A stretch of 64,000 nt of DNA from the IMG/VR virus record IMGVR_UViG_3300045988_154892; one strand, 5' to 3'. The stretch comes from a virus. A program made the position numbers and the translations under genes. Of this stretch, positions 8,139 to 57,004 are shown in pieces (position 1 is the stretch's first letter; the number at the start of each line of letters is the position of its first letter). A model generated the notes under the pieces. It searched no databases, was not told the origin of the DNA, and saw nothing but the letters and a program-made list of their open reading frames with translations.

Positions 8139-10766
8139 TTGAAAGGACTAACAAACGAACAAGTAAAAATGAGTCGGGAAAAATATGGCTCAAACAAACT
8201 ACCAGAACCAAAGCTTAAGAAATGGTATGAATTTGCGATTGAAAATATCTTTGGTGATAAAACGCTGATGCTGTTATTAGCATTATCTGCATATGAGATT
8301 TTCGCTGCAGTATTTGGATTGGCATCATTTTCAGAACCAATCATGGTGATTTTAGTTATTTCATTATGTACATATATTGGTGTAAAAATGGCGCTTGGTA
8401 TTCAAAAATCAACACAAGAACTAAGAGCAAAGACATCAACTAGGTATTGTGATGTTATCAGAGATGGGCAAGTTCAGACAATCAACAAAGATAATTTAGT
8501 TGTTGGTGATGTGGTTTGTATTGGAACTGGACAGGAAATTTACGCGGATGGATATATTATTGAGGGTAAAATTTCTGTAAGCAATGCTGCTATCAACGGA
8601 GAAAGTAAAGAATGTCAGAAAATTCCAATTAATGGTTATGTATACAAAAAATCAACATCCACCGATGATTTTACGAATCAAAATAGCTTATTTGCTGGAA
8701 CAACGATTCTGTCTGGCGAAGGAAAGATGATCGTAGGCGAAGTTGGCGTAAACACCATAAATGGTGACACACTTGTAAAAATGCAGACACTTGAGCCACC
8801 TAAAACAGCACTTCAGATTGCGATCGATAAACTTTGTGATACAATTTCGAGATATGGAACTATTGCTGCAGTCGTCACGTTTATTGCACTTATGGTAACG
8901 GATATTGCGTATATTGGATTCAGAGAATATATCAATGGTGGTGTGCTAGAAGTTATCCAAAAGATTGCACAGAACATTTCGGTTGCTCTAACAATCATTG
9001 TAGCTGCTGTTCCAGAAGGACTTCCATTAATTATCAAGCTTGTTACAAAACAGAATGTTAAGACAATGGAACAGTTCAACATTCTTGCTAAAAATCCTAA
9101 TAAGATTCCTGAGTTAGCATACGTTGATCTTATTTGTACTGATAAAACAGGGACTCTTACGACTGGTGTTATGACGCCTGTAACTATTATTGATGGACAA
9201 GGTAATGAAGTAGATCATGGTTCTGATCTTTGGAAAAATATTGTAAATAATATTTGCTTAAACAACAGTGCTACATATGATTCAGAGAATAATATCACAG
9301 GTGGAAATTCCATTGACAGAGCGGTTTTAAGTCTTGTTAATCCAAAAGAATGTGAAGATATTTTTGGAAAGTATCCATTAGTTCAGAAGCAAACTTTTAG
9401 TAGTGAAAATAAGTATTCTGCTTTTGAGAGCAAATATAACTGGGGCGAATCGTTTACATATTATAAAGGAGCACCTGAAAAACTGATCGAGCATTGTACG
9501 CATTGGCTAGATTTAGAAGCCATTCCATTTGGTGGGGATGACAAGAAAAAGCTGTATGACAAAATTAAGGCTTTAACTGAAAAGTCTATGCGTTGTATCG
9601 CTCTTACATTTTCTAATTCACCGCTGGTGGAGAATACATTACCAGACAACATGGTACTTCTCGGAATCATCGGTGTCATTGACCCAGTAAGAAAAGAGGT
9701 TCCAAAGGCTGTGCAGGTCGCTCATGAAGCTGGCATTCAGGTTATCGAGATTACCGGTGATTGTCATGAAACTGCAGTAGCCGTTGCTACGGAAGCTGGC
9801 ATTTATAAAGAAGGTGATCTTGCCCTTACAAATGCACAGTTTGAAGCGATGTCTGACGATGAAGTCAAGAAAATTATTCCTGTACTTCGAGTAATTTCCA
9901 GATGCTCACCTAATACAAAACTGAGACTTGTAACATTAGCACAGGAGCTTGGTAGATCAGTAGCTATGACAGGTGACGGGGTTAATGATAGTCCAGCATT
10001 AAAACGAGCTGATGTAGGTTTCGGTATGAATGCTGGATCTGATGTAGCAAAAGAAGCATCCGATATTATTCTAACAGACAATAACTTCGCAAGTATTATT
10101 AGAGGTGTGGAACTTGGCAGAACATTTATGCACGATATCATGATGTTTTTGGAGTTTCAGTTGCCAATTAACTTTTCACTTCTTATTTTAAGTATTCTAT
10201 TTCCTATTTTATCTGGCGGAGTATTACTAGCTTCCGTTCAAATTCTGATTATCAATATTATCATGGACTCACTTAATTCCTTATCATTTGGCGGTGAACC
10301 TCCGAAAGCTGAATATATGACAGAGAATCCAATTAAGAAGGGTTCTGGATTGTTTATTCGAGGTGCAAAGAAACGAATTGCTATTAGCACAGTAACATTT
10401 ATTGTACTATATGGAATTCTTATGTTTTCACCAGTATCAAAATTATTTACAACAGATGTCGAAGCTATGACTGCAAGATTTGCAATGCTTTGCATCATGT
10501 CTGTATGCAATGGATTTGGTATTCGTACAGAACATATTAATTTGCTCAATGGACTGAAAAACAATAAAACATTTGTATATATTGCAGCAGGTATTGTACT
10601 TGGAACTATTGCCTTATGTAATGTACTCGGTGGACTTATCCAGGTAACAGCAATGAATATGAGTCAGTGGATCGCAATCATTGGACTATCACTCACGGTA
10701 ATCGTGGTTGATGTTATTCGAAAATTATTTATCAAAGGAGAGAATAAAAATCATGGGACTATTTGA
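8139..10766 (+). CDS. P-type cation-transporting ATPase (Ca2+-ATPase-like, P2 type)
   Basis: 875 aa. Phosphorylation site ICTDKTGTLT, hinge TGDGVNDSPALKRADVG, PEGLP in TM4, N-terminal LTNEQV..REKYGSNKL. TTG start after AAAGGAG. Confidence 0.9.
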   Translation: MKGLTNEQVKMSREKYGSNKLPEPKLKKWYEFAIENIFGDKTLMLLLALSAYEIFAAVFGLASFSEPIMVILVISLCTYIGVKMALGIQKSTQELRAKTSTRYCDVIRDGQVQTINKDNLVVGDVVCIGTGQEIYADGYIIEGKISVSNAAINGESKECQKIPINGYVYKKSTSTDDFTNQNSLFAGTTILSGEGKMIVGEVGVNTINGDTLVKMQTLEPPKTALQIAIDKLCDTISRYGTIAAVVTFIALMVTDIAYIGFREYINGGVLEVIQKIAQNISVALTIIVAAVPEGLPLIIKLVTKQNVKTMEQFNILAKNPNKIPELAYVDLICTDKTGTLTTGVMTPVTIIDGQGNEVDHGSDLWKNIVNNICLNNSATYDSENNITGGNSIDRAVLSLVNPKECEDIFGKYPLVQKQTFSSENKYSAFESKYNWGESFTYYKGAPEKLIEHCTHWLDLEAIPFGGDDKKKLYDKIKALTEKSMRCIALTFSNSPLVENTLPDNMVLLGIIGVIDPVRKEVPKAVQVAHEAGIQVIEITGDCHETAVAVATEAGIYKEGDLALTNAQFEAMSDDEVKKIIPVLRVISRCSPNTKLRLVTLAQELGRSVAMTGDGVNDSPALKRADVGFGMNAGSDVAKEASDIILTDNNFASIIRGVELGRTFMHDIMMFLEFQLPINFSLLILSILFPILSGGVLLASVQILIINIIMDSLNSLSFGGEPPKAEYMTENPIKKGSGLFIRGAKKRIAISTVTFIVLYGILMFSPVSKLFTTDVEAMTARFAMLCIMSVCNGFGIRTEHINLLNGLKNNKTFVYIAAGIVLGTIALCNVLGGLIQVTAMNMSQWIAIIGLSLTVIVVDVIRKLFIKGENKNHGTI

Positions 10767-11545: not shown

Positions 11546-12184
11546 ATGGCAAACGTAATTAATATGAGTAAAAACCAGAAAATCAGCATGACAAAAGAAG
11601 ATGGAACTGCAATTAAAAACTTTTTCATCGGTGTAAATTGGGATCAGAACCGTTATGCTGGCGAAGCAGATATTGATTTTGATATTAACGGATTTCTTAC
11701 AAACGCTGACCGAAAGGTAACTTATCCAAAAGATATCGTAAACTATAATACATATGGTGATGGTAGCGGATATCCGTGGGTAGAATATTCTGGAGACAAT
11801 CTTACGGGCGATGATTCTCAAGGGATTACTTTTGACGGACATCATTATGATGAATATTTTATTATTCATGCAGATACATTTCCATCAGATAAAACAGACT
11901 TCACAATTTGCCTTACTATTTTCAGAGCTGTACAGAGACTACAGAATTTTGGAATGGTTAATAACGCAACTATGATGATCTGTGATTATGACAATCCGAC
12001 AACAAAATGGGAATATGATCTTTCTGAAAATGAGAATTTTGAAAAACTGAACGCTGTAGAAATGGGAAGATTATATAAATATGGTAACGGATTCAAATTT
12101 CAAGCACTAGGATCTGGTTATATGGGTGGAATGACAGAGCTATTCAAAAATTTTGGACTTGATATTGATGAAGGTAGGGACTAA
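11546..12184 (+). CDS. TerD-family stress protein
   Basis: TerD-like signatures: ISMTKEDG...GVNWD...DIDFDINGF...GDNLTGDD (Ca2+-binding acidic motifs). Confidence 0.7.
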   Translation: MANVINMSKNQKISMTKEDGTAIKNFFIGVNWDQNRYAGEADIDFDINGFLTNADRKVTYPKDIVNYNTYGDGSGYPWVEYSGDNLTGDDSQGITFDGHHYDEYFIIHADTFPSDKTDFTICLTIFRAVQRLQNFGMVNNATMMICDYDNPTTKWEYDLSENENFEKLNAVEMGRLYKYGNGFKFQALGSGYMGGMTELFKNFGLDIDEGRD

Positions 12185-14024: not shown

Positions 14025-14105
14025 GCTGGCGTGGCGGAATTGGTATACGCACTGGCTTCAAATACCAGGATCACAGATATGTGGGTTCGAGTCCCACCGT
14101 CAGTA
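14025..14105 (+). tRNA. tRNA-Leu (anticodon CAA), class II, no encoded CCA
   Basis: Hand-folded cloverleaf. Acceptor GCTGGCG/CGTCAGT has two G:U pairs. D arm GCG-GAATTGGTATA-CGC. Anticodon loop TTCAAAT (CAA at 14059-61, C31:A39 mismatch). Long variable arm. T arm GTGGG-TTCGAGT-CCCAC. Confidence 0.75.
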
Positions 14106-14109
14106 TTTA

Positions 14110-14256
14110 GCACCATGAAGTATGCAACTTTGTTTAGTTGGAAGTAAAAGAATATCGCAACACAAAAATCGTATGTTTTGTGTAACTAAATGCAGCGAAA
14201 AGGTATTATGAAAGGCTAATTCATTGGAGGTCGTGCATGGCTTCGCTTCATGGTGC
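14110..14256 (+). ncRNA. structured spacer RNA between the two tRNAs (candidate stable RNA)
   Basis: GCACCATGAAG (14110-20) pairs perfectly with CTTCATGGTGC (14246-56). The helix extends through TATGCA (14121-26) / TGCATG (14234-39). Inner helices are TTTAGTT/AACTAAA and ACACAAAA/TTTTGTGT. The closing helix starts 4-5 nt from each tRNA end. Confidence 0.45.
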
Positions 14257-14261
14257 GATCA

Positions 14262-14335
14262 GGATCATTAGTTCAGTAGGTTAGAACGCCCAGCTCATAA
14301 CTGGGAAGTCACTGGTTCAAGTCCAGTATGATCCA
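14262..14335 (+). tRNA. tRNA-Met or Ile2 (anticodon CAT), no encoded CCA
   Basis: Perfect cloverleaf. Acceptor GGATCAT/ATGATCC. D arm GTTC-AGTAGGTTA-GAAC. Anticodon arm CCCAG-CTCATAA-CTGGG. T arm ACTGG-TTCAAGT-CCAGT. A paired 1:72 argues against an initiator. Confidence 0.9.
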
Positions 14336-36650: not shown

Positions 36651-37697
36651 TTGAATCCGATATTCAATGAATATATCAAATTTTTAAGAGACACTTTTGG
36701 AGAAGAATTACCTTATTTAAAAGAAGGATTCTTTTGGCTTGATAAACAGATTATAAAAGGCTTTGATAGTCAACTTGTAGAACATAAATTTTACAGAGTT
36801 AAAGTATCAGATAACCTAAAAAAAGTAGAAATTCTAAAATTAAAATCTTATGAAGATCCATCTGAAGTTGACATAATAAATTGGAATACGATGGTTAGCA
36901 TCAAAGAGAATCAATTGATAGAACTTGAGCATGAATCCTTATATCTGATACGTGAGAAAATCAAAGACTATAATGCATATACTCCAATAATACCTGTTTC
37001 TATGGGTAAAGATTCTATGGTTACATGTCATTTAGTTCGAAAACTATATCCAAACACAAAAGCAATATTCAATAATACATCACTTGACTGTGCTGATACA
37101 TATAAGATGGTTAAACGATTTCCGAATTGCGAAATTATGAATCCAGACAAAGGATTTTATCAATATGTAAAATCTGATTCTATGATTCCGTCAAGATTTT
37201 CAAGATTCTGTTGTAGGATTTTTAAAGTTGGAGTTATGGTTTCTCAGCTTGATAATAAGCATCCGTATTTAATTTTTATGGGAATGAGAAATGAAGAATC
37301 AAACACAAGAAGCAATTATCAAGATGAATGGGTTAATACTTCCGAATGGGGAGACACATGTTGGCAAGGAATACTTCCTATTAGAAAGTGGACAGAGTTA
37401 GATGTTTGGCTTTATACATTTTGGAGAGATATTGAAGTCAATTCAAAATATAAAAAAGGATATTCAAGAGTTGGATGCCATTGTGCTTGTCCGTATTATG
37501 CGAAGTCAACATGGATTCTTGATAAATATTGGTATCCAAAAGCATATAAAAGATGGAGAGATATTCTAAGAGAAGATTTTATTAACAATCAGAAATGGCT
37601 GATTATGAATTGCACTATCAAAGAGTATCTTACTCAAGCATGGAATGGTGGTGTGTTTAGAAGTGAGCCACACAAGAAGTTATTGATGAATTTGTAG
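36651..37697 (+). CDS. PAPS-reductase-like PP-loop ATPase (IbrA/DUF3440-type), C-terminus in another frame to 37930
   Basis: PP-loop VSMGKDS, plus CCRIFK, GMRNEESNTR and GYSRVGCHCACPY. The frame stops at 37697. An 87-codon Zn-ribbon tail (EVIDEFVEHTGIDKQIALQYF..CCECN..CKKC) is open in the -1 frame over 37667..37930. Confidence 0.7.
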   Translation: MNPIFNEYIKFLRDTFGEELPYLKEGFFWLDKQIIKGFDSQLVEHKFYRVKVSDNLKKVEILKLKSYEDPSEVDIINWNTMVSIKENQLIELEHESLYLIREKIKDYNAYTPIIPVSMGKDSMVTCHLVRKLYPNTKAIFNNTSLDCADTYKMVKRFPNCEIMNPDKGFYQYVKSDSMIPSRFSRFCCRIFKVGVMVSQLDNKHPYLIFMGMRNEESNTRSNYQDEWVNTSEWGDTCWQGILPIRKWTELDVWLYTFWRDIEVNSKYKKGYSRVGCHCACPYYAKSTWILDKYWYPKAYKRWRDILREDFINNQKWLIMNCTIKEYLTQAWNGGVFRSEPHKKLLMNL

Positions 37698-37960
37698 AAC
37701 ATACAGGAATTGATAAACAGATTGCGCTGCAATATTTTAATAAGAAATGTTGTGAGTGCAATAAGAGAATAAAACATAAGGAAGTTCTTTCAATGAACTT
37801 AAAAATACATGGAAGACAAGTTAATAAATTCTATTGTAAGAAATGTTTGATGAAAGAATTCGATTGGACAAAAGAAGATTGGGACAAACAGGTGGAAGCG
37901 TTTAAGGCTCAAGGTTGTGCGTTGTTCTAGGTTTTATTGGTAGAAAGGTGGTGAAAAGTA

Positions 37961-38317
37961 GTGCATCCGAGTGAGTTTTTTAAGAATTGTTCTCTAAGGA
38001 CAGGAATTGATATATTTGAAATCTACGATACAGATTTAAAAGAAAAATTAAAAAATGTGCATCCAAAGAATTTCCTGAAAACAAAAATTACATTGCCAGT
38101 ATATAAAGTCAATTTATCTTATCTTACAGAAAAAGGTAATTACAAAACAGTTGACAGATATGCGGTAATGGATTCAAGTGCAGATGATGAGTATTTTGAT
38201 TTCTGGCTCGATATGTTTATGAGAGATTATAATAATGATAATCCAAATCACAAGATGATAAATTGTGAAATAAACAACATAGAAAGACTTTGCGAAGCTG
38301 TACTACCAATTGGTTAG
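37961..38317 (+). CDS. small protein, paralog of 36132..36455
   Basis: GTG start after AAAGGTGGTG. Shares motifs with the 107-aa paralog. Confidence 0.6.
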   Translation: MHPSEFFKNCSLRTGIDIFEIYDTDLKEKLKNVHPKNFLKTKITLPVYKVNLSYLTEKGNYKTVDRYAVMDSSADDEYFDFWLDMFMRDYNNDNPNHKMINCEINNIERLCEAVLPIG

Positions 38318-38524
38318 CTTTTCACCATATGTATTTAATACCTTTGTGCAGCAAAGGTTGTCACGATGATTTATAGAAGACGGATCATTGGTTAATATAA
38401 ATCGAAAAAGCAATGTGGTAGTGACGTAAAAAGACACCCACGATAAAAATGAATAAGTCTCATTTTTAAAGAGTATGGCTTTACCTCATTGAAATGAAAT
38501 AATTTTCAGTGAGGAAAGTACATA
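38318..38524 (+). promoter_or_regulatory. conserved structured leader with RBS-sequestering hairpin (copy 2)
   Basis: Hairpin CCTTTG-TGCAG-CAAAGG followed by GGTTGT (38341-60). AGTGACGTAAAA (38420-31), ACACC (38434-38). CCTCATTGAAA (38484-94) pairs with TTTCAGTGAGG (38504-14), which covers the SD GAGGAAAG. TTG start at 38525. Confidence 0.5.
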
Positions 38525-39538
38525 TTGGTACAGAAAGCTAATACAATTGAGGAACTATTAAATGATTGTCCTGTAAATCAAACGATTTGTGACAACTTAA
38601 TTCGTGCATGGGTAATTATTAATAATACAAAATATAAGAAAATCATTTGTTCAATCTCAGGCGGTTCTGACAGTGATGTAATGTTAGATATCGTTTGGAG
38701 ATGTGACAAAGATAATAAAGTAGATTATGTGTGGTTTGATACTGGACTGGAATATCAAGCAACAAAAGATCATTTGAAATTTCTTGAAGGAAAATACGAT
38801 ATTGCATTTCATTCTTACAAGGCTATAAAACCTATTCCTACATCTTGCAAGGAATATGGACAACCATTCTTATCAAAACAAGTCAGTGAATTTATCCAAA
38901 GATTACAAAAGTATAACTTTCAATGGGAAGATGAAGATTTTGACACATTATATAAGAAATATCTAAAATGTAAGTCTGCCTTGGAATGGTGGTGTTGCAG
39001 CAAAGGTAACGACAGTTGTTTCAATATTACAAGAAACAAATGGTTGAAAGAATTTATGATTGCAAATCCTCCAACGTTTAATATTTCAAACAAGTGTTGT
39101 AAATATGCAAAGAAAAATGTTGCGCATAACATTGTAAAGTATGGAATAGATGGCAAATTATTTGACTTACAGATTATAGGTATCAGGAAAGCTGAAGGTG
39201 GTGCTAGATCAACAGCATACAAATCATGCTTTGATGATAATAACGACATTGACAATTATAGACCTTTGTTCTGGTATAAAAATTCAGATAAAGAAGATTA
39301 TGAGAAAGCATATGGAATTATTCATAGTGATTGTTACTTGGAATATGGTTTAAAACGTACAGGATGTTGTGGTTGTCCTTATGGAAGAGATTTTGAGAAT
39401 GAATTAGATGTAATTGAGAAGTATGAACCTAAACTATATAAAGCAGTAACGAATATTTTCAAAGATTCTTATGAATATACAAGAAAGTACGTGGAGTTTA
39501 GAAAAATGATGGATGAGAAGGAGAGAATCAAACAATGA
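38525..39538 (+). CDS. PAPS-reductase-like PP-loop ATPase (second, divergent copy)
   Basis: PP-loop SISGGSDS, plus CCKYAKK, GIRKAEGGARS and GLKRTGCCGCPYG. Confidence 0.7.
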   Translation: MVQKANTIEELLNDCPVNQTICDNLIRAWVIINNTKYKKIICSISGGSDSDVMLDIVWRCDKDNKVDYVWFDTGLEYQATKDHLKFLEGKYDIAFHSYKAIKPIPTSCKEYGQPFLSKQVSEFIQRLQKYNFQWEDEDFDTLYKKYLKCKSALEWWCCSKGNDSCFNITRNKWLKEFMIANPPTFNISNKCCKYAKKNVAHNIVKYGIDGKLFDLQIIGIRKAEGGARSTAYKSCFDDNNDIDNYRPLFWYKNSDKEDYEKAYGIIHSDCYLEYGLKRTGCCGCPYGRDFENELDVIEKYEPKLYKAVTNIFKDSYEYTRKYVEFRKMMDEKERIKQ

Positions 39539-50475: not shown

Positions 50476-50715
50476 ATGAAACTACAAAAACAAATCATTC
50501 TTGACAACGTTGATAAAGTAAAAGCGTTTGTTATGACAGTCAGCAAATATCCTGGGGATGCAACACTTACATCTGGAAGATATGTTGTTGATGCAAAATC
50601 CATTATGGGTATCTTCAGCCTTGCTCTAAATCAGCCAATTGATTTTACCTATGAAGGTGAACTAGCAGCAGAGCTTGCGAAAGAAGTCCAAGTATACGAA
50701 AGTCAGGAGGTATAA
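50476..50715 (+). CDS. HPr/Crh-like small protein lacking His15 (second copy)
   Basis: VDAKSIMGIFSLAL matches the HPr Ser46 region. No His at the phosphocarrier position. ATG 50476 follows AAGGAGAA. Confidence 0.55.
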   Translation: MKLQKQIILDNVDKVKAFVMTVSKYPGDATLTSGRYVVDAKSIMGIFSLALNQPIDFTYEGELAAELAKEVQVYESQEV

Positions 50716-50719
50716 ACCA

Positions 50720-51340
50720 TTGAATAATTTTAAGAAAAAACTAACAACTACTGTAACTCTACTAACCGTATTACTCACTCCAACACTGGCTAATGCAGAG
50801 ACTAAATATGTCGAACCTAGCATCGGTCTTAATTATCGAACAGGTGATTCTGTTAAGTCTCAGAAGATTGGTGCTCTTCCATATGGAGCATCAGTAGAGG
50901 TGCTTGACATCACAGAGAGCAACTGGGCAAAAGTACAGATTGGCGATAATGTATTCTATATGTCAAATGAATATCTTTCTGATACCCCACTTATCGCAGA
51001 GCCTATTCAACAGGCTGAACCAATTGAGACGGAATCCGTAGAGACAACTTCTTATTCCTGCTACAGTCTTGGTACATATCGAATCACTCATTACTGCGGA
51101 TGTGCAAACTGCAATGGTTCCTGGGCTGGCAGTCCAACGGCATCTGGTGCATATCCTGTAGCTGGCAGAACAGTTGCCATGGCTGATTTACCGTTTGGAA
51201 CTGAAGTAGAAATTAACGGTCAGATCTACACTGTAGAAGATCGTGGAGTGCCGAGTGGATGCGTTGATATTTATGTCGACAACCATTCTGAAGCTCTTAA
51301 TGCAGGTATGTATTATGCAGAAGTTAGAGTAGTGGGATAG
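50720..51340 (+). CDS. secreted SH3 + 3D-domain cell-wall protein
   Basis: TTG 50720 lies 9 nt after AGGAGG. Signal peptide ...TVLLTPTLANA. 3D-domain signature YRITHYCGC..CNG...TASG...VA.......G..V...G..YTVEDRG...DIY. Confidence 0.7.
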   Translation: MNNFKKKLTTTVTLLTVLLTPTLANAETKYVEPSIGLNYRTGDSVKSQKIGALPYGASVEVLDITESNWAKVQIGDNVFYMSNEYLSDTPLIAEPIQQAEPIETESVETTSYSCYSLGTYRITHYCGCANCNGSWAGSPTASGAYPVAGRTVAMADLPFGTEVEINGQIYTVEDRGVPSGCVDIYVDNHSEALNAGMYYAEVRVVG

Positions 51341-51369
51341 TTGACATGGAGAAAATCTGAGGTTATAAT
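51341..51369 (+). promoter_or_regulatory. perfect sigma70/sigmaA consensus promoter
   Basis: TTGACA (51341-46), 17-nt spacer, TATAAT (51364-69). Begins directly after the stop codon at 51338-40. Confidence 0.7.
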
Positions 51370-51385
51370 ATCCCCAACAAGGTTT
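51355..51385 (-). repeat. copy 1 (inverted) of the TTGGGGAT-core repeat
   Basis: The minus strand reads TTGTTGGGGATATTATAACCTCAGAT. Core ATCCCCAA at 51370-77. Overlaps the -10 box. Confidence 0.55.
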
Positions 51386-51571
51386 TCTCTATGTCCCAGG
51401 GCAATCCAGTTGATCCTCAAAAGGGCAAAGTCACTGATCCCCTAGCCGTTCGCTAACAGATCACCAACCGCCCCTTTTCCGGATCATCAGCCCGGACACA
51501 AGCCCAACCATCTATAAAATCAAAATGAAGACCTTGTAACCATGAAAAATGTGGTTATGAGGTCTTTTTTT
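51376..51571 (+). ncRNA. orphan ~195-nt transcription unit (sRNA or leader; contains a 21-codon sORF 51391..51456)
   Basis: Bounded by the consensus promoter and a strong terminator. The interior is visibly GC-richer than its flanks. No SD precedes ATG 51391. Confidence 0.5.
51529..51571. terminator. strong, probably bidirectional, rho-independent terminator
   Basis: AGACCTTGTAACCA (51529-42) pairs with TGGTTATGAGGTCT (51552-65): 14 bp including 2 G:U, 9-nt loop, then T7. The reverse complement is followed by CATTTTGATTTT. Confidence 0.75.
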
Positions 51572-51614
51572 ATATTAATAGCAAATTATGCACAGATAAA
51601 AAGGCTTAAATACT

Positions 51615-51645
51615 GGGTTTTGGGGATGTGCAATTTTGAAATTTC
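51615..51645 (+). repeat. copy 2 of the TTGGGGAT-core repeat
   Basis: TTTTGGGGATGTGCAATT at 51618-35, which is 17/18 identical to copy 3. Core at 51620-27. Confidence 0.65.
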
Positions 51646-51707
51646 CCGATGAAACTGGGATTTCATCTGCTTTTATCTATCCCATATCCATTTCTCACCT
51701 GCCCTCT

Positions 51708-51848
51708 TCAAACATAGACTAAACCTTCCAGTCGGAAAAGTTTATACGAAATATATGTCAAAATATCTATTAAATATTCTATAGTCATATCAGCGGCAGA
51801 ACCAACAGTTTTGCCCTTTTTAGGCTCAAGGAGGTTGCCTTGAAACAT
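51708..51848 (-). CDS. 46-codon sORF whose 5' end is homologous to sORF 51391
   Basis: Minus-strand ATG at 51848: MFQGNLLEPKKGKTVGSAADMTIEYLIDILTYISYKLFRLEGLVYV*. The first ~16 codons align with MSQGNPVDPQKGKVTD, with synonymous differences. Confidence 0.3.
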   Translation of the reverse strand: MFQGNLLEPKKGKTVGSAADMTIEYLIDILTYISYKLFRLEGLVYV

Positions 51849-51864
51849 AGTATATTTTTTACTC

Positions 51865-51895
51865 TATTTTTGGGGATGTGTAATTATAGATATTA
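51865..51895 (+). repeat. copy 3 of the TTGGGGAT-core repeat (candidate tnsA-proximal transposon terminus)
   Basis: TTTTGGGGATGTGTAATT at 51868-85, core at 51870-77. The reverse complement contains TATAAT. Confidence 0.6.
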
Positions 51896-51945
51896 AAAAG
51901 TCTGGGAACCCGCATAAACACTGGATTCTTGATTTCCCAGATTTT

Positions 51946-52044
51946 CCCAAAAACAACAGGATTTGGGTACTTATTCTTACACACGCCCAAAAACAAGCAT
52001 TTTTGGGTACTTTTCGAAACACACATAATTCATTTTTGGGTAAC
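51946..52044 (+). repeat. three direct TnsB-binding-site-like repeats upstream of tnsA
   Basis: CCCAAAAACAACAGGATTTGGGTAC (51946-70), CCCAAAAACAAGCATTTTTGGGTAC (51986-52010), CATAATTCATTTTTGGGTAAC (52024-44). TTTGGGTA starts at 51962, 52002 and 52035. Confidence 0.55.
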
Positions 52045-52077
52045 TTTTTCGACACATAAAATCAAAGGAGGTACACT

Positions 52078-52422
52078 ATGTACAAGAAAAACTACAAAGG
52101 ACGCTGTGAGAAAAAGTCTCTTTCTAAATGTGACACGATCTGCCGATGCTATAGCACCATCCAATCTGTTTATGCAGACAAACTGGAAACCGATCCATCT
52201 GTTCAATCCTTTCAATGTAACACGCCACTCGAAGATGAAGACTACACAACAGACTTCCTTATTACACGACAGGACGGCACGCAATATGTCCGAGAGTGTG
52301 TAGAACGAAGTCATCTGACCAGGCCCAAGCCACTTACAATCAAACTTCTGGACACATCACGTTCCTACTGGCTTGCCCATAACGTTCAAGATTGGGGGAT
52401 TGTAACAGATGCAGAAAGCTGA
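52078..52422 (+). CDS. tnsA: short TnsA-like protein (N-terminal nuclease fold only, catalytic residues apparently substituted)
   Basis: AAGGAGG SD upstream. STIQSVYADKLETDPSVQSF..TPL, YTTDFLI and SYW....WGIVTDAE align with Tn7 TnsA SDLE...FPL, STDFLV and RYW...WFIFTDKE (alignment from memory). 114 aa. Confidence 0.6.
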   Translation: MYKKNYKGRCEKKSLSKCDTICRCYSTIQSVYADKLETDPSVQSFQCNTPLEDEDYTTDFLITRQDGTQYVRECVERSHLTRPKPLTIKLLDTSRSYWLAHNVQDWGIVTDAES

Positions 52423-54142
52423 TATAGCCTATATCAATAACACGTTCTACAGAATTTTAAAGACATCAGATAACCAGACCCTTGTAATTGACTGTCTCCA
52501 TCCGAAAATGCCATTCTGGACGATCAGAACGCAATATACCCCATTGCCAGAGAAGCAATTATATGATGTTCTAAACATCACACCACCAGATGTGAAAGAC
52601 CTTACATCTGATCAGATGCGCATTGCACATGAGCGGTACACACTGATTGCACCAATTTTATACCACTTAGGAGAAAGCACAGCAACTGCAAACATCATCT
52701 CTTCCATCTCAGAAGAGCATAACATTAGTAAGCAGACCATCCGCCGCTATCTATATCAATATCTAATCTTTCAGACCATCACTGTACTTGCACCAAAAGT
52801 TCATACGAAAGAAAAGGTGCTGACTAAAGATGAGAAGAACATGAGATGGGCATTGAATAAGTTCTTCTATACACGCAGACAAAACAGTCTTGTGACAGCA
52901 TATGAGATGATGTTAAAAGAAAAGTATTGTGACAGCATGGGACAGCTACTATCCGATCATCCATCCTTTTATCAGTTCCGATACTTTTACCGGAAAACTA
53001 AGAAGCTCCAAACTTATTATATTTCCAGAGATGGACTGTCAAATTACCAGAGGAACAATCGTCCCTTGCTAGGAGATGGTATCCGTGAGTTCGCAACCAA
53101 TATCGGTACTGGTATGTTTGATTCCACCGTATGTGACATTTACCTTATTGACGAAACCGGTACCTTAAAAGGTCGTCCGATCCTAACCACTTGCATTGAT
53201 GCTTACAGCAGTATGTGTTATGGCTATGTTCTCTCATGGAATAACGATACAAAGAGTTTATGCCATCTGCTCCAAAATATACTTACCGACAAAACAGAAT
53301 GGTGTAGAAAGTTTGGTATCCCATTAGACAAATCCCAGTGGAACGTGCAAGAGTTACCGGGCATCTTTATCACTGATATGGGACGGGAATACACATCAGA
53401 ATCCTTTGCACAGATCACAGAAACAGGCGTGACTATGGTAAATCTTCCACCATACAGACCAGAGTTGAAAGGTGCTGTAGAGAAATTCTTTGACATCATT
53501 CAATCCATGTATAAACCACTTCTCAAGGGTAAAGGTGTGATTGATCCGGACTTCCAGGAACGAGGTGCAAGAGATTACAGATTAGATGCTTGCTTGACAA
53601 TGTTTGATTTTGAGAAGATCATCTTACGCTGTATCATTTACTATAACAGTCAACGGCTCATAGAACGATTCCCTTACACACAATCTATGATTCATGATGG
53701 AGTAAAGCCATATGCAGCCAGTTTATGGGAATGGGGAAGACGGCAACCAGGCGCAAATTTAATTTCATTCCCGCATGATACCGCGAAAATAATCCTATAT
53801 CTGCTCCCACGTACCATTGGGACATTCACTAGGCGTGGTCTAGTGGTAAAAGGGATGCGGTATAAACGGGATGATTGCGCCGAAAGATTCCTGCAAGGTG
53901 GAGATGTTAAGGTTGCTTACGATCCAGATGATGTATCTGTAGTATGGACAGTAGAGAAGGGCGAGTTTATTCCTTTTGAATTGGTTGAAAGCAGATATAA
54001 GAATAGAAAATTGGATGAAGTAGAGCAGATCAAAGAACAGAGCAAAACAACACTACGTTCTGAACAAATCAATGCAAGACAGGCGAAAATTAATTTGATG
54101 AATGAGATCGAGTTGATTGCTAGGGGAGGAGTTAAAAGATGA
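52409..54142 (+). CDS. tnsB: TnsB-like DDE transposase
   Basis: HTH ISKQTIRRYLYQY. DDE candidates CDIYLID, ITDMGREYTS and YRPELKGAVEKFF. Mu-transposase-type C-terminal barrel GLVVKGMRYKRD. Confidence 0.85.
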   Translation: MQKADIAYINNTFYRILKTSDNQTLVIDCLHPKMPFWTIRTQYTPLPEKQLYDVLNITPPDVKDLTSDQMRIAHERYTLIAPILYHLGESTATANIISSISEEHNISKQTIRRYLYQYLIFQTITVLAPKVHTKEKVLTKDEKNMRWALNKFFYTRRQNSLVTAYEMMLKEKYCDSMGQLLSDHPSFYQFRYFYRKTKKLQTYYISRDGLSNYQRNNRPLLGDGIREFATNIGTGMFDSTVCDIYLIDETGTLKGRPILTTCIDAYSSMCYGYVLSWNNDTKSLCHLLQNILTDKTEWCRKFGIPLDKSQWNVQELPGIFITDMGREYTSESFAQITETGVTMVNLPPYRPELKGAVEKFFDIIQSMYKPLLKGKGVIDPDFQERGARDYRLDACLTMFDFEKIILRCIIYYNSQRLIERFPYTQSMIHDGVKPYAASLWEWGRRQPGANLISFPHDTAKIILYLLPRTIGTFTRRGLVVKGMRYKRDDCAERFLQGGDVKVAYDPDDVSVVWTVEKGEFIPFELVESRYKNRKLDEVEQIKEQSKTTLRSEQINARQAKINLMNEIELIARGGVKR

Positions 54143-55347
54143 ACGGTAAATTACTTTCACAATTGCCTGATTTTTTATGTGAAAACGAATTAGTAGAACG
54201 ACTGAAGATATTACCAAACTATAATATAAACATTGCCAATGAAACAATACCAACTCGTCTTCTTGCGTTATCAGAATTATATGATATTTATATTCCATCA
54301 CAATTATCTGTTGATGTATATAATAAATTGTATATGGCATTACTCAGATCGATTAAGAAAAAAGAAAATGATATGATGGTAAAACAGCAAAGAATCGAAA
54401 ATACAACAAACACCATACAAACGTATAATGGTATTATAGGTGGTGCTGATTCGTTTACAATCATTGGAGTTTCTGGCATAGGGAAGAGTAGTGCTATTAC
54501 CAGAGCGATCTCATTGATTTTCGGAAATCATTTTATCGAAACAACAGACCCATATCAACGAATTGCTCCTTTTATACTTGTGCAATGCCCATTTGACTCT
54601 TCTGTAAAAAGTCTATTGTTAGAAATCGTTCGTATTCTTGATGCTACATTGGATGGAGATTATTTACAGATAGCACAACGGTATACGACGGATAGACTAA
54701 TCGGTTTTGTTAGCCAAATATGTTTAAATCATGTTGGGGTACTTATTGTTGATGAGATTCAAAATGTAGTTAATAATAAAAACGGTGATAAACTTATTGG
54801 GGCATTAACACAGATTATAAATAGTAGTGGAATTAGTGTAGGCATGGTTGGAACACCAGAATGTCTACATTGGTTTGAAAGCGCACCACATCTGGAACGA
54901 AGGACAATAGGCTTGCGATATTTACGGACTGATTATGATGATGATTTTATACATTTTTGCAAAAATCTATTAAAATTTCAATATGTGCAACAATACACAG
55001 AACCATCAGAAAAATTTATAAATTGGTTGTATGCTCATTCAAACGGAGTGACATCAACTGTTGTATCATTATTTTATAGAGCACAAGAATTAGCCATTAT
55101 GAGTAACACAGAGAAATTAAGTATTGATATTTTTAATGCGTCATACAATGGGCTGATGTCTATGCAAGTAGAAAAAGTGCAAAAGAAAAATAGTCAAACA
55201 GTCAATAAATCACATAAAGAAATAACAATTCATCATTCGAATGGTGTTAATATTGCTGACTTATACAATTATTCACAATCTAATAACTATGATCTCTTAA
55301 CTCTTATCAAAAATACTTTTACTGTTGAAGAGGTGGAAATATGTTAA
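54139..55347 (+). CDS. tnsC: TnsC/TniB-like AAA+ ATPase
   Basis: Walker A GVSGIGKSS, Walker B LIVDEIQN. 4-nt overlap with tnsB. Confidence 0.85.
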   Translation: MNGKLLSQLPDFLCENELVERLKILPNYNINIANETIPTRLLALSELYDIYIPSQLSVDVYNKLYMALLRSIKKKENDMMVKQQRIENTTNTIQTYNGIIGGADSFTIIGVSGIGKSSAITRAISLIFGNHFIETTDPYQRIAPFILVQCPFDSSVKSLLLEIVRILDATLDGDYLQIAQRYTTDRLIGFVSQICLNHVGVLIVDEIQNVVNNKNGDKLIGALTQIINSSGISVGMVGTPECLHWFESAPHLERRTIGLRYLRTDYDDDFIHFCKNLLKFQYVQQYTEPSEKFINWLYAHSNGVTSTVVSLFYRAQELAIMSNTEKLSIDIFNASYNGLMSMQVEKVQKKNSQTVNKSHKEITIHHSNGVNIADLYNYSQSNNYDLLTLIKNTFTVEEVEIC

Positions 55348-56825
55348 ATTATTTTCCTAAAATATATGACTATGAATTGTTCTATAGCATATATTCAAGA
55401 TTGAAACAAGATATAAATGTACAGAGCAATCAATCTTTTAAAGAAATCGTGTTTAAACGACCGAATGAATACATCGAAATATTTTATATAAACGAACCAA
55501 GTGACATACTACATTCTTTTATGTCAAAAAATTATATTATTAATGACTTATACTATAACCATACTATGTTTTTTTACTGGTCTGTATTTCTAAACGAATC
55601 GGATAAAGAAAATGCGTTGAGAAAGCTCATATCAAATGACAAAAGTTTTTTAGAATACCTTTCCCCAAGACCAAAACATAAACATCAAAAAATATTTCTA
55701 AAATATTGTCCATTATGTGCAAAAGAAAATCGAGAGCAATATCATGAAACATATTGGAATGCTTTCCATCAAATTCCAGAAATTAATGTTTGTGTAATTC
55801 ATGGATGTAAACTCAAAGATTCATCGGTTCATGTTAACAATTCAAGAATAATAAATTTTCTAACGGCTGAAAATTGCATTAATGATGATTATTCATATGA
55901 TATGGGAACCATCGGTGAAATCAAGGCTGCAAAATACCTATATCAATTGGTAGTAAGAAAACAGAGTCTTAAGAACGGTATTACGATGTTTGACGTATTT
56001 TACAGGAAGTTAATTCAAAAGAAATATATCAATCAGCTTTCATGGCTCCAACACAAGTCGGTATTTTTAAATAATTTTAAACAATATTTATCTGACAATA
56101 ACATAAAGGAAGCTTGTCAAATAAAAGCAATGAGTAATATATTCTTAAATAAAGCGAATCCACTTAGAACAATTCATATATTATTATTTTTAGATATACA
56201 AATATCTGATATTTTTGTATGCAAAACGGCGAAACAAATTGATTTGGAATTAATTGAAAGAATTCGATCAGAGTATACAAAAGATAACGGTATAAACAAA
56301 CTTGCGAAGCAATATCATATTTTACCTTGTAATGTAAGTAAAATAATTAACGGTCAATATGAAGTTGAAAAACAAAAATTAATAAGCCAAAATTATGCAC
56401 ATAGCAGCAGTAGGAATATACCGCCTAAAGGAAAGAGGCATTCTGAATTAGATAAAAAGTATTATCCTAAAATTGAATATTATATTGACTTATATTTTAA
56501 GAATTCTGACAAAGTTAGAAGATTAACTGTAGGAGGATTTAATGTTTTCATGCAACAAATTTGTCAGGACATCAGAAGAAATGATTTTTATTATATGCCA
56601 CAATGCTATAAGTATATTAAAACAAAAGAAAAACCAATAGAGGATTATTGGGTCGATAAAATAAAATATATTGTCGATCAAATTGACAGCGATTATATTT
56701 CATATAACGAATTAAAGGGTATGGTACACATAATAGAAAAAAATATGATAAAAGCTATGGATATACTACAATACAGATATCCTGAAACGTACCTAAAAAT
56801 ACAGAAAAATAATAAAAAAGCGTAA
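55341..56825 (+). CDS. tniQ: TniQ/TnsD-like target selector
   Basis: N-terminal TniQ motif YELFYSIYSRL. Zn module CPLCAKE..(19 aa)..CVIHGC. HTH-like INKLAKQYHILPCNVSKI. 494 aa, which is TnsD-size. Confidence 0.8.
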   Translation: MLNYFPKIYDYELFYSIYSRLKQDINVQSNQSFKEIVFKRPNEYIEIFYINEPSDILHSFMSKNYIINDLYYNHTMFFYWSVFLNESDKENALRKLISNDKSFLEYLSPRPKHKHQKIFLKYCPLCAKENREQYHETYWNAFHQIPEINVCVIHGCKLKDSSVHVNNSRIINFLTAENCINDDYSYDMGTIGEIKAAKYLYQLVVRKQSLKNGITMFDVFYRKLIQKKYINQLSWLQHKSVFLNNFKQYLSDNNIKEACQIKAMSNIFLNKANPLRTIHILLFLDIQISDIFVCKTAKQIDLELIERIRSEYTKDNGINKLAKQYHILPCNVSKIINGQYEVEKQKLISQNYAHSSSRNIPPKGKRHSELDKKYYPKIEYYIDLYFKNSDKVRRLTVGGFNVFMQQICQDIRRNDFYYMPQCYKYIKTKEKPIEDYWVDKIKYIVDQIDSDYISYNELKGMVHIIEKNMIKAMDILQYRYPETYLKIQKNNKKA

Positions 56826-56828
56826 AAA

Positions 56829-56877
56829 ATGGGGAATACCAAAATTAATTGATATTCCCCATAAAATTATTGCATCA
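56829..56877. repeat. inverted repeat / candidate distal transposon end
   Basis: ATGGGGAATA (56829-38) and TATTCCCCAT (56853-62) form a perfect 10-bp IR with a 14-nt spacer. The reverse complement reads TGCAATAATTTTATGGGGAATATCAATTAATTTTGGTATTCC, resembling the tnsA-side repeats. Confidence 0.45.
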
Positions 56878-57004
56878 TTTTATCTTATATGATATACTAT
56901 TTTTGCACTGATGAAACGGTTGTTTCATATGATGGTGAAAAAAGAATATTTTCTTTTCTGGCTGTCTGATGAAGGCGGCTTTTCTTATTTCACGCGTATA
57001 TTTA

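Follow-up and report, generated by a model that had tools for sequence, protein, structure and literature searches.

In its TnsD pathway, Tn7 inserts at attTn7 (glmS) in a fixed orientation, tens of bp past the stop codon of a conserved gene and with the same transposon end always facing that gene. The proteins TnsB, TnsC and TniQ/TnsD, a 5-bp target duplication and TGT...ACA termini belong to the same picture. All of these features recur at a locus in a 64,000-nt stretch of viral DNA, the IMG/VR record IMGVR_UViG_3300045988_154892 (the whole stretch is referred to below as the window), where a first-pass annotation had described an orphan RNA unit with its own promoter and terminator at positions 51341–51571. 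This unit is here read as the place where phage DNA meets U1, one of the two ends of a 456-bp mini-transposon, M, which is little more than two transposon ends. Taken as a whole, the corresponding model of Tn7-type lysogeny is considered likely: judged from its sequences, the phage appears to place itself behind conserved genes of bacteria by means of M and Tn7-type proteins. The locus differs from Tn7 in that the tns genes lie outside the ends, the mobile DNA measures 456 bp and the integrated “cargo” is the whole phage. Moreover, TnsA is truncated and probably inactive, and the targets are pfl, rlmH and asd.

Tn7 with a mutated TnsA gives cointegrates. Likewise, Tn7-like elements without TnsA, such as CRISPR-associated transposons (CASTs) of type V-K and elements of the Tn5053 type, form cointegrates flanked by two direct copies of the element (PMC11406308), as is the case for the prophage described here. 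In contrast to these elements, the cointegrate would here be the useful end product, namely lysogeny, and not a by-product, and no guide RNA takes part. The tns module also differs from that of CASTs in that it holds no cas genes, and the variable segment of M is common to different insertion sites. Phage Mu shares the DDE transposase (rve and Mu-transpos_C domains), the AAA+ partner and the 5-bp duplication with this phage; however, Mu inserts near-randomly, replicates by transposition and does without TniQ, whereas the present phage is site-specific (only three sites were seen), carries its own DNA polymerase III (Pol III) alpha subunit, helicase and ligase and occurs in a joined form with a single M. 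Retroviral long terminal repeats (LTRs) resemble M in being direct repeats of a few hundred bp which stand at both ends, are bounded by TG...CA and contain transcription signals. Since this is a double-stranded DNA phage without reverse transcription and with the promoter outside the repeat, the resemblance is architectural only. Finally, IS10, IS50 and IS1 control impinging transcription and have end-proximal terminators or antisense RNAs, while circles of insertion sequences (IS) carry junction promoters. The likeness to the locus lies in signals at transposon ends which depend on the outside context; it involves no sequence or family relationship, and a comparable role may be suggested here.

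A survey of 6,549 Tn7-like transposons published in 2021 found no Tn7-like transposase homologues in any virus (PMC8649781), and neither a natural phage lysogenising with TnsB, TnsC and TniQ nor a virus with Tn7-type integration was found in the literature searched. The parts are thus known (Tn7-like proteins, cointegrates and transposable phages) and their combination is new: an ends-only element of 456 bp, proteins encoded outside the ends, integration of a phage of roughly 100 kb and swappable protein selectors. If the model is true, phages have a third way of becoming lysogenic, besides those by site-specific recombinases and by random transposition of the Mu type, and the Tn7 cointegrate, commonly regarded as a nuisance, would in this natural case be the functional product. 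A minimal 456-bp donor served by proteins from outside and by swappable, protein-only selectors would also be directly relevant to engineering the insertion of very large pieces of DNA (~100 kb) in gut Firmicutes.

M at both ends of the prophage

The comparison set comprised about 75 related gut contigs, and a degenerate pattern for the transposon ends (U-box) matched 44 human-gut metagenome loci. In all loci fetched, M (51392–51847, 5'-TGTCCC...GAAACA-3') has sharp boundaries which are identical across at least five different flank contexts, and it is the sole DNA bounded by transposon ends in the joined form. Its ends read 5'-TGT...ACA-3' and carry imperfect inverted repeats of ~41 nt, U1 and U2, with 51389–51429 being 78% complementary to 51810–51850 over 41 nt. 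U1 (51392–51429, + strand), nearly invariant in 34 distinct copies, is the Tn7R-like terminal repeat facing the target gene and abuts the 3' flank of host pfl, rlmH or asd in lysogens. U2 (51810–51847, − strand), delimited by the inverted-repeat match and the junction boundaries, is the Tn7L-like repeat at the other end of M, which adjoins the tns operon when the ends are joined and, in the prophage, host DNA on the far side. The contexts of M include the window's own, a second phage type with another upstream gene and several with bacterial DNA on one side. Among these bacterial flanks are a pyruvate formate-lyase-like gene, Obg, an ApbE-family protein, a pyridoxamine-phosphate-oxidase-family (PNPOx) protein and CobW; the rlmH and asd flanks were recognised from translated C-termini.

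When the left flank from one host context is combined with the right flank from a second, they restore an intact terminator hairpin in which CCCGC is duplicated. The uninterrupted site is present in Fusicatenibacter saccharivorans AM67-22ACA (...AAAGCC[CCCGC]GGCCGC...). Compared with this empty site, the lysogen junctions (...[CCCGC]/TGTCCC... and ...GAAACA/[CCCGC]GGCCGC..., the slash marking the boundary of M) show a target duplication of 5 bp. M is present at both prophage ends, and two contigs each hold both junctions in the same orientation. The two copies of M within one of these contigs are identical (461/461) and those within the other match at 443/459 positions, with about 90% identity between prophages. 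It follows that the entire phage is inserted, with the 5-bp duplication, the TG...CA termini and a copy of M at either end.

The boundaries of M are fixed independently by the places where assemblies break. About 31 locus ends (some of them from the same contig fetched twice) stop 52–55, 77, 87–88, 97 or 127 nt inside M, and single locus ends also lie 69 and 118 nt inside its boundaries. These are assembler k-mer distances, the pattern left by a repeat with differing flanks in a de Bruijn graph, and this accounts for the breaks at the M locus in short-read assemblies of these phages, which are common in the gut. Long perfect inverted repeats were rejected as the cause of the breaks, the two arms being different in genome 2854395284. 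An invertible segment between U1 and U2 was likewise rejected, as the orientation is the same in every assembled copy and the breaks are explained by the k-mer-length stops. The U-box pattern (the U1/U2 consensus, CTRTGT...AAAAGGGCAAA) had zero matches in 185,579 representative genomes, and short matches to it in viral contigs were chance hits in unrelated coding sequences for the peptide FDPKKGK.

The first-pass annotation had placed tnsA-side transposon repeats ~50 nt downstream of the unit. Repeats do exist, at 51618 and 51868, but they do not form a transposon end, and the copy at 51618 lies inside M and is not conserved. Nor are the palindromes at 51946–52058 the transposon terminus for which they had been taken; they sit upstream of tnsA and outside M, within the donor flank and tns upstream region (51848–52077, + strand). 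Here, two 40-nt repeats, each with a palindrome CCCAAAAAC..TTTTTGGG, and a third half-site immediately precede tnsA. In appearance they are closer to repressor operators than to the repeats of a transposon end, and an operator-like function may be assumed for them. Transposon ends at TGTG 51877 or 51627, with TnsB sites at 51962–52058, were rejected because host-junction homology stops at 51847 and 51392. A left end within 56826–57004 was also rejected, this region being conserved phage DNA with weak resemblances only. The phage DNA flanking M is itself symmetric (51341–51391 and 51848–51890), reading TATAAT(N0-5)ATCCCCAA(N13-21)CTA/TGT into M on both sides; the copy on the tns side has a −10 element and no −35, and the symmetry might reflect recognition by a cutting or packaging enzyme. 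Inside M, positions 51706–51717 hold a near-copy of the U2 terminus and its flank (CTTCAAACATAG compared with CTTGAAACATAG), which may be a relic end or an extra transposase site.

Transposition proteins, target choice and route of integration

The tns genes lie on the + strand. The first of them (52078–52422) encodes a truncated TnsA-like protein of 114 aa, which scores just below the cut-off of Pfam PF08722 (24.7 against 26.5 bits) and has no match among PDB sequences. The protein appears to stop before the C-terminal domain of Tn7 TnsA and to have its catalytic lysine replaced, and it is probably inactive. It is followed by the DDE transposase TnsB (52409–54142; rve and Mu-transpos_C domains, with HTH_TnsB in the gene calls of relatives), the AAA+ regulator TnsC (54139–55347; TniB and AAA_22 domains) and a TniQ/TnsD-like target selector of 494 aa (55341–56825; PF06527). 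By Pfam, the joint presence of TnsB, TnsC and TniQ/TnsD genes marks the system as Tn7-like; with tnsABC-tniQ outside the ends of M in the joined form, it is not an autonomous element. No resolvase was seen in the tns module, genes elsewhere in the phage having only been sampled.

In all lysogen junctions, U1 points towards the 3' end of a conserved host gene and lies 28–36 nt past its stop codon. This geometry is that of classic TnsD/TniQ targeting. Three insertion sites were found: a pflB-like gene, the product of which carries the glycyl-radical motif RVSGYAV at its C-terminus, rlmH and asd. Insertion at pfl splits the gene's own terminator, and insertion at rlmH falls in the start of the next gene, a member of the PNPOx family. 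At the left rlmH junction (L077, ~11976–12000), the Shine–Dalgarno (SD) sequence of this host gene and ATGCGTGAA are fused in frame to the short open reading frame (ORF) of the U1 end, and at the other rlmH junction the host gene keeps only its second ATG.

The insertion site changes with the type of TniQ. The TniQ of the pfl-site prophages is only 22% identical to that of the window, with tnsA and tnsB genes which are 96–97% identical at the DNA level, and their TnsC is divergent, aligning over a stretch of ~180 nt only, at ~70% nucleotide identity (L104 5083–7805 compared with 54139–56825 of the window). According to these comparisons, the target-selector module (TniQ/TnsC) is swapped. This also bears on a guide RNA as the determinant of the site, in which the variable 3' half of the predicted transcript would direct target choice in the manner of a CAST homing guide or a bridge RNA. 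The comparison is invited by a stretch of variable sequence with conserved parts on either side and by the location of the RNA at a transposon end near tniQ-type genes. However, the rlmH prophage (L076) and the pfl prophages (L081 and L104) are nearly alike in the variable segment, which differs between two prophages of the pfl site, and site choice follows the type of TniQ instead. Furthermore, the tns module contains neither cas genes nor another candidate effector, the indels look like slippage and complementarity between the variable segment and the insertion sites was not seen, which makes a guide function hardly credible.

The first-pass annotation had applied the logic of Tn7 geometry to the window itself and proposed the unit as an attachment site, where TniQ would recognise a phage RNA gene and the tnsA-proximal end would be inserted tens of bp beyond it. 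The window does resemble the glmS–Tn7R arrangement, with the 3' end of a conserved unit pointing at the tns genes, and this arrangement is common to all close relatives. The logic proved sound for the ends of host genes, but the conserved gene end does not lie in the flagged unit. The unit falls within the target duplication, occurs as a copy at each end of the prophage and is missing from the empty host site; it therefore travels with the element, an outcome which the annotation had itself named as speaking against a target. With the 3' ends of host pfl, rlmH and asd as the actual targets and the supposed end repeat at 51618 not conserved, the reading of the unit as an attachment site is refuted.

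According to the proposed mechanism, TniQ would pick the 3' end of a conserved host gene, and TnsB would join the ends of M about 30 nt past its stop codon. M would transpose replicatively from the circular phage, so that fusion to the chromosome yields a cointegrate which is the prophage, with a direct copy of M on either side and a duplication of 5 bp. What the window shows is the joined form with a single M. A replicative mechanism is most likely because 5' cleavage by TnsA is probably missing, and a cointegrate is proposed because two direct copies of M are the product of replicative transposition from a circular donor. As the phage has replication genes of its own (Pol III alpha and others), transposition probably serves lysogeny and not replication.

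A linear route is the less probable course of events. In this case, M would be a direct terminal repeat of the linear packaged genome, as in retroviral LTRs, and TnsB would join the physical ends; alternatively, a unit with two copies of M would be cut from concatemers. The single-M junction of the window would then be a circle, a concatemer junction or a collapsed repeat. The symmetry of the donor flanks over ~30 bp on the two sides of M, as if recognised by a cutting enzyme, speaks for such a route. Conversely, no contig starts or ends exactly at the outer boundaries of M among the locus ends examined, the TnsA-like protein looks inactive and the cointegrate route needs no extra assumptions.

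Several points weigh against replicative lysogeny as outlined above. Linear and concatemer routes fit the structure of the prophage (M at both ends, 5-bp duplication, TG...CA) equally well. In a BLASTP alignment with Tn7 TnsA, the TnsA-like protein keeps D114, has V in place of K132 and ends at about residue 167; this alignment, like the placement of the missing C-terminal domain, is provisional. A sequenced empty counterpart is at hand for one insertion site only. At the rlmH site, the duplication looks 7–8 bp long when junctions from different samples are combined. Resolution of a cointegrate would be expected to leave a lone M in the chromosome, which was not seen among the loci and representative genomes scanned.

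The predicted transcript and its terminator

The promoter P (TTGACA-17-TATAAT, 51341–51369, + strand) lies outside M in the phage DNA flanking U1. As first described, it directly follows the TAG stop codon of an upstream ORF (50675–51340), which encodes an SH3_3-domain protein. P matches the consensus at 12/12 positions and is the sole perfect match within the window; since 0.15 perfect promoters are expected in the shuffled window (with at least one match in 14/100 shuffles), this uniqueness alone is not significant. Conservation adds weight to P. The −35 element, the 17-nt spacing and the −10 element are kept in all relatives according to the alignments, and the second phage type, which has another upstream gene and 11/17 spacer positions changed, keeps TTGAAT-17-TATAAT with the same −10 element and leader. 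The predicted transcript of ~195 nt (51376–51571, + strand) would consist of a flank-derived leader of ~15 nt followed by the first 180 nt of M. The high GC content reported for the interior was confirmed, at 0.46–0.52 compared with roughly 0.3–0.4 in much of the DNA around it, although some portions of the flanking genes come to 0.45–0.49.

The transcript is predicted to end at a strong intrinsic terminator (51527–51571, + strand), formed by a hairpin at 51527–51567 and a T7 run up to 51571. The hairpin and the T7 run had been annotated correctly, but the stem is longer than the 14 bp first given, with 18 pairs in the scan and 17 in the ViennaRNA fold. It is invariant in 34/34 distinct copies. 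Four G·U pairs on the + strand make it 8 kcal/mol stronger on that strand (−22.9 against −14.6 kcal/mol), which points to selection on the + strand, and the terminator is predicted to be effective there only. A second terminator-like hairpin (51795–51824, + strand), with an 8-pair stem followed by CTTTTT, is conserved in the alignments, and its T-run is part of U2. The two hexamers at a distance of 17 nt and the GC-rich hairpin with its U-run are features of a sigma-70 promoter and an intrinsic terminator, with predicted activity, and the unit is probably transcribed.

The predicted RNA of 196 nt folds at −61.5 kcal/mol (z = −5.9), and RNAalifold retained five short helices and the terminator across 34 distinct copies. 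It belongs to no known RNA family: an Rfam 15 covariance scan of the window at the gathering threshold returned 2 tRNAs only, and in a permissive scan the best matches to the unit had E > 1, far below the thresholds. Among the 34 distinct copies, 0/43 base pairs were altered on both sides, the shuffle control being uninformative. Helices 3 and 4 correspond to an inverted pair of the core motif TGATCCNNAAAAGGG (51411–51486; 51411–51425 and 51472–51486, 87% complementary), which are candidate TnsB sites, and a third copy of this motif lies in U2 at 51814–51828. Three copies of TGAKCCNNAAAAGGG and GATC-centred repeats at a spacing of 23–26 nt are candidate TnsB-binding repeats within the ends. 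Because helices 3 and 4 are copies of the candidate TnsB motif and show no covariation, constraint on the DNA accounts for their conservation. Accordingly, transposase-binding end DNA is the best description of the conserved 5' half of the “RNA”, with TnsB as the putative ligand. For annotation, this means that a convincing “orphan sRNA gene” can be transposon-end DNA.

Promoter, U1, U2 and terminator are nearly invariant among the relatives. Behind U1 follows a segment rich in substitutions and in indels of 11 nt, which therefore holds no conserved coding region. Hypervariable linkers with such indels surround a conserved motif copy (51467–51520), and one linker variant occurs in prophages at different insertion sites. 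The 21-codon ORF reported earlier (51391–51456) is indeed present and indeed lacks an SD sequence. That the unit serves to encode this 21-residue peptide is highly doubtful: an ATG ORF exists and a similar short ORF can be read from U2, but besides the lack of an SD sequence the start is GTG, CTG, TTG or host-fused in other copies. Furthermore, the ORF has no conserved length (L065 and L100 have a much longer one), and immediately beyond it there is an indel of 11 nt.

With regard to the role of these signals, P would start a transcript ~15 nt outside U1 which reads across the transposon end, and the terminator would stop it after ~195 nt. In this way, the terminator would insulate the interior of M, the second end and the tns operon from transcription entering via U1. 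Such transcription would come from P in the joined form and at the far prophage end, and from the host gene at the near end. Insulation is proposed as the main role of the terminator because, in the lysogen, it lies downstream of the targeted host gene, and because insertion at pfl splits that gene's own terminator. However, P and the terminator are predicted signals only, and a consensus promoter feeding a 195-nt dead-end transcript is odd for a pure insulator. The consensus strength of P hints that the RNA itself acts, and end occlusion, antisense pairing to U2 transcripts or the sensing of joined versus integrated ends are possible regulatory roles.

The first-pass annotation had considered, as an alternative, a small RNA (sRNA) belonging to the element. 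The unit does belong to the element and is probably transcribed, but no evidence of sRNA action was obtained. A working regulatory RNA of ~195 nt which reports joined versus integrated ends is compatible with the insulator role and is, as an explanation of the unit, rather unlikely. Its first ~55 nt (U1) would be antisense to + strand transcripts leaving via U2, or transcription from P would block the use of internal ends. The retention of a consensus promoter in two phage types, the 41-nt complementarity of U1 and U2 and the specificity of the terminator for the + strand are consistent with this idea. Where a helix has changed on one side only (nine cases), a G-U pair is retained on the + strand every time, which mildly favours constraint at the RNA level. 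Conversely, the complementarity of U1 and U2 is already demanded by the terminal inverted repeats, and no promoter which would put U2 into the tns mRNA was identified. In addition, the second terminator-like hairpin stands just before U2, covariation is absent and no further complementary target besides U2 was found within the window.

P may also be viewed as a junction promoter which, as long as the phage ends are joined, would drive the tns operon through read-through or antitermination and which integration would disconnect, comparable to the promoters on IS circles. In agreement with this, the joined form is the only one in which P is upstream of tnsABCQ, and in the prophage P is found at the far end. 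The presence of two + strand terminators between P and tnsA, with no antiterminator identified, renders this improbable. The insulating terminator remains the preferred reading of the unit. The widest form of the model is put forward tentatively, at somewhat less than an even chance. It holds that large temperate phages of human-gut Lachnospiraceae have replaced their integrase with a Tn7-type machine, in which an ends-only M of 456 bp transposes replicatively from the circular phage to a site picked by TniQ behind a housekeeping gene, and the cointegrate is the prophage. Exchangeable TniQ/TnsC proteins would retarget lysogeny, and the P-driven RNA across U1 would be part of a switch which tells joined from integrated ends and thereby controls the use of internal end copies by the transposase.

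The phage and its relatives

Fusicatenibacter-like Lachnospiraceae are the hosts of this large phage, which has genes for a Pol III alpha of its own, a RecD-like helicase, an NAD ligase, NrdD and tRNAs. In the window, convergent phage lysis and tail genes follow tniQ. In about 30 IMG/VR contigs and two more distant relatives (TniQ 77–78% identical), the order is SH3 gene, unit, tnsABC-tniQ and endolysin. The transposon-free phage relative called for by the first-pass annotation was not found via the upstream SH3 protein or TniQ, the synteny being common to all relatives, even at 77% TniQ identity. Among 5.8 billion proteins, TniQ has relatives of at least 77% identity only, besides fragments and one weak partial match, and every context of these relatives examined has the same phage synteny. 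The unit had no match in GenBank phages by blastn, nor did the window's TniQ by tblastn against 50,697 GenBank phage records.

The phage also carries a P-type cation-transporting ATPase, an unusual feature among phages, along with two genes that have a PAPS-reductase domain and two for tRNAs (8139–10766, 36651–39538 and 14025–14335). A second small feature resembling a transcription unit lies between tniQ and the endolysin gene (56869–56990, + strand), antisense to the 3' end of the latter. It comprises TTGCAT-17-(TG)TATACT with a spacer that varies among relatives, a hairpin, GATGAAAC..GTTTCAT, similar to 51648–51669, a separate terminator-like hairpin with G·U pairs and a 28-codon ORF.

Several relatives contain additional insertions in this region. 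In one relative, an insertion of ~1.48 kb near the 3' end of tniQ (L015 14096–15582 and L023 9427–10913), with tniQ nt 1420–1427 repeated on both sides as an 8-bp duplication, is probably an insertion sequence. In three relatives, an insertion of ~1.8 kb splits the endolysin gene at nt 1227/1229 (L024 10892–12713, L030 10891–12712 and L031 2432–4253) and may be an intron or homing element. A further insertion of ~1.5 kb lies between the spacer downstream of tniQ and the endolysin gene (L093 4889–6395).

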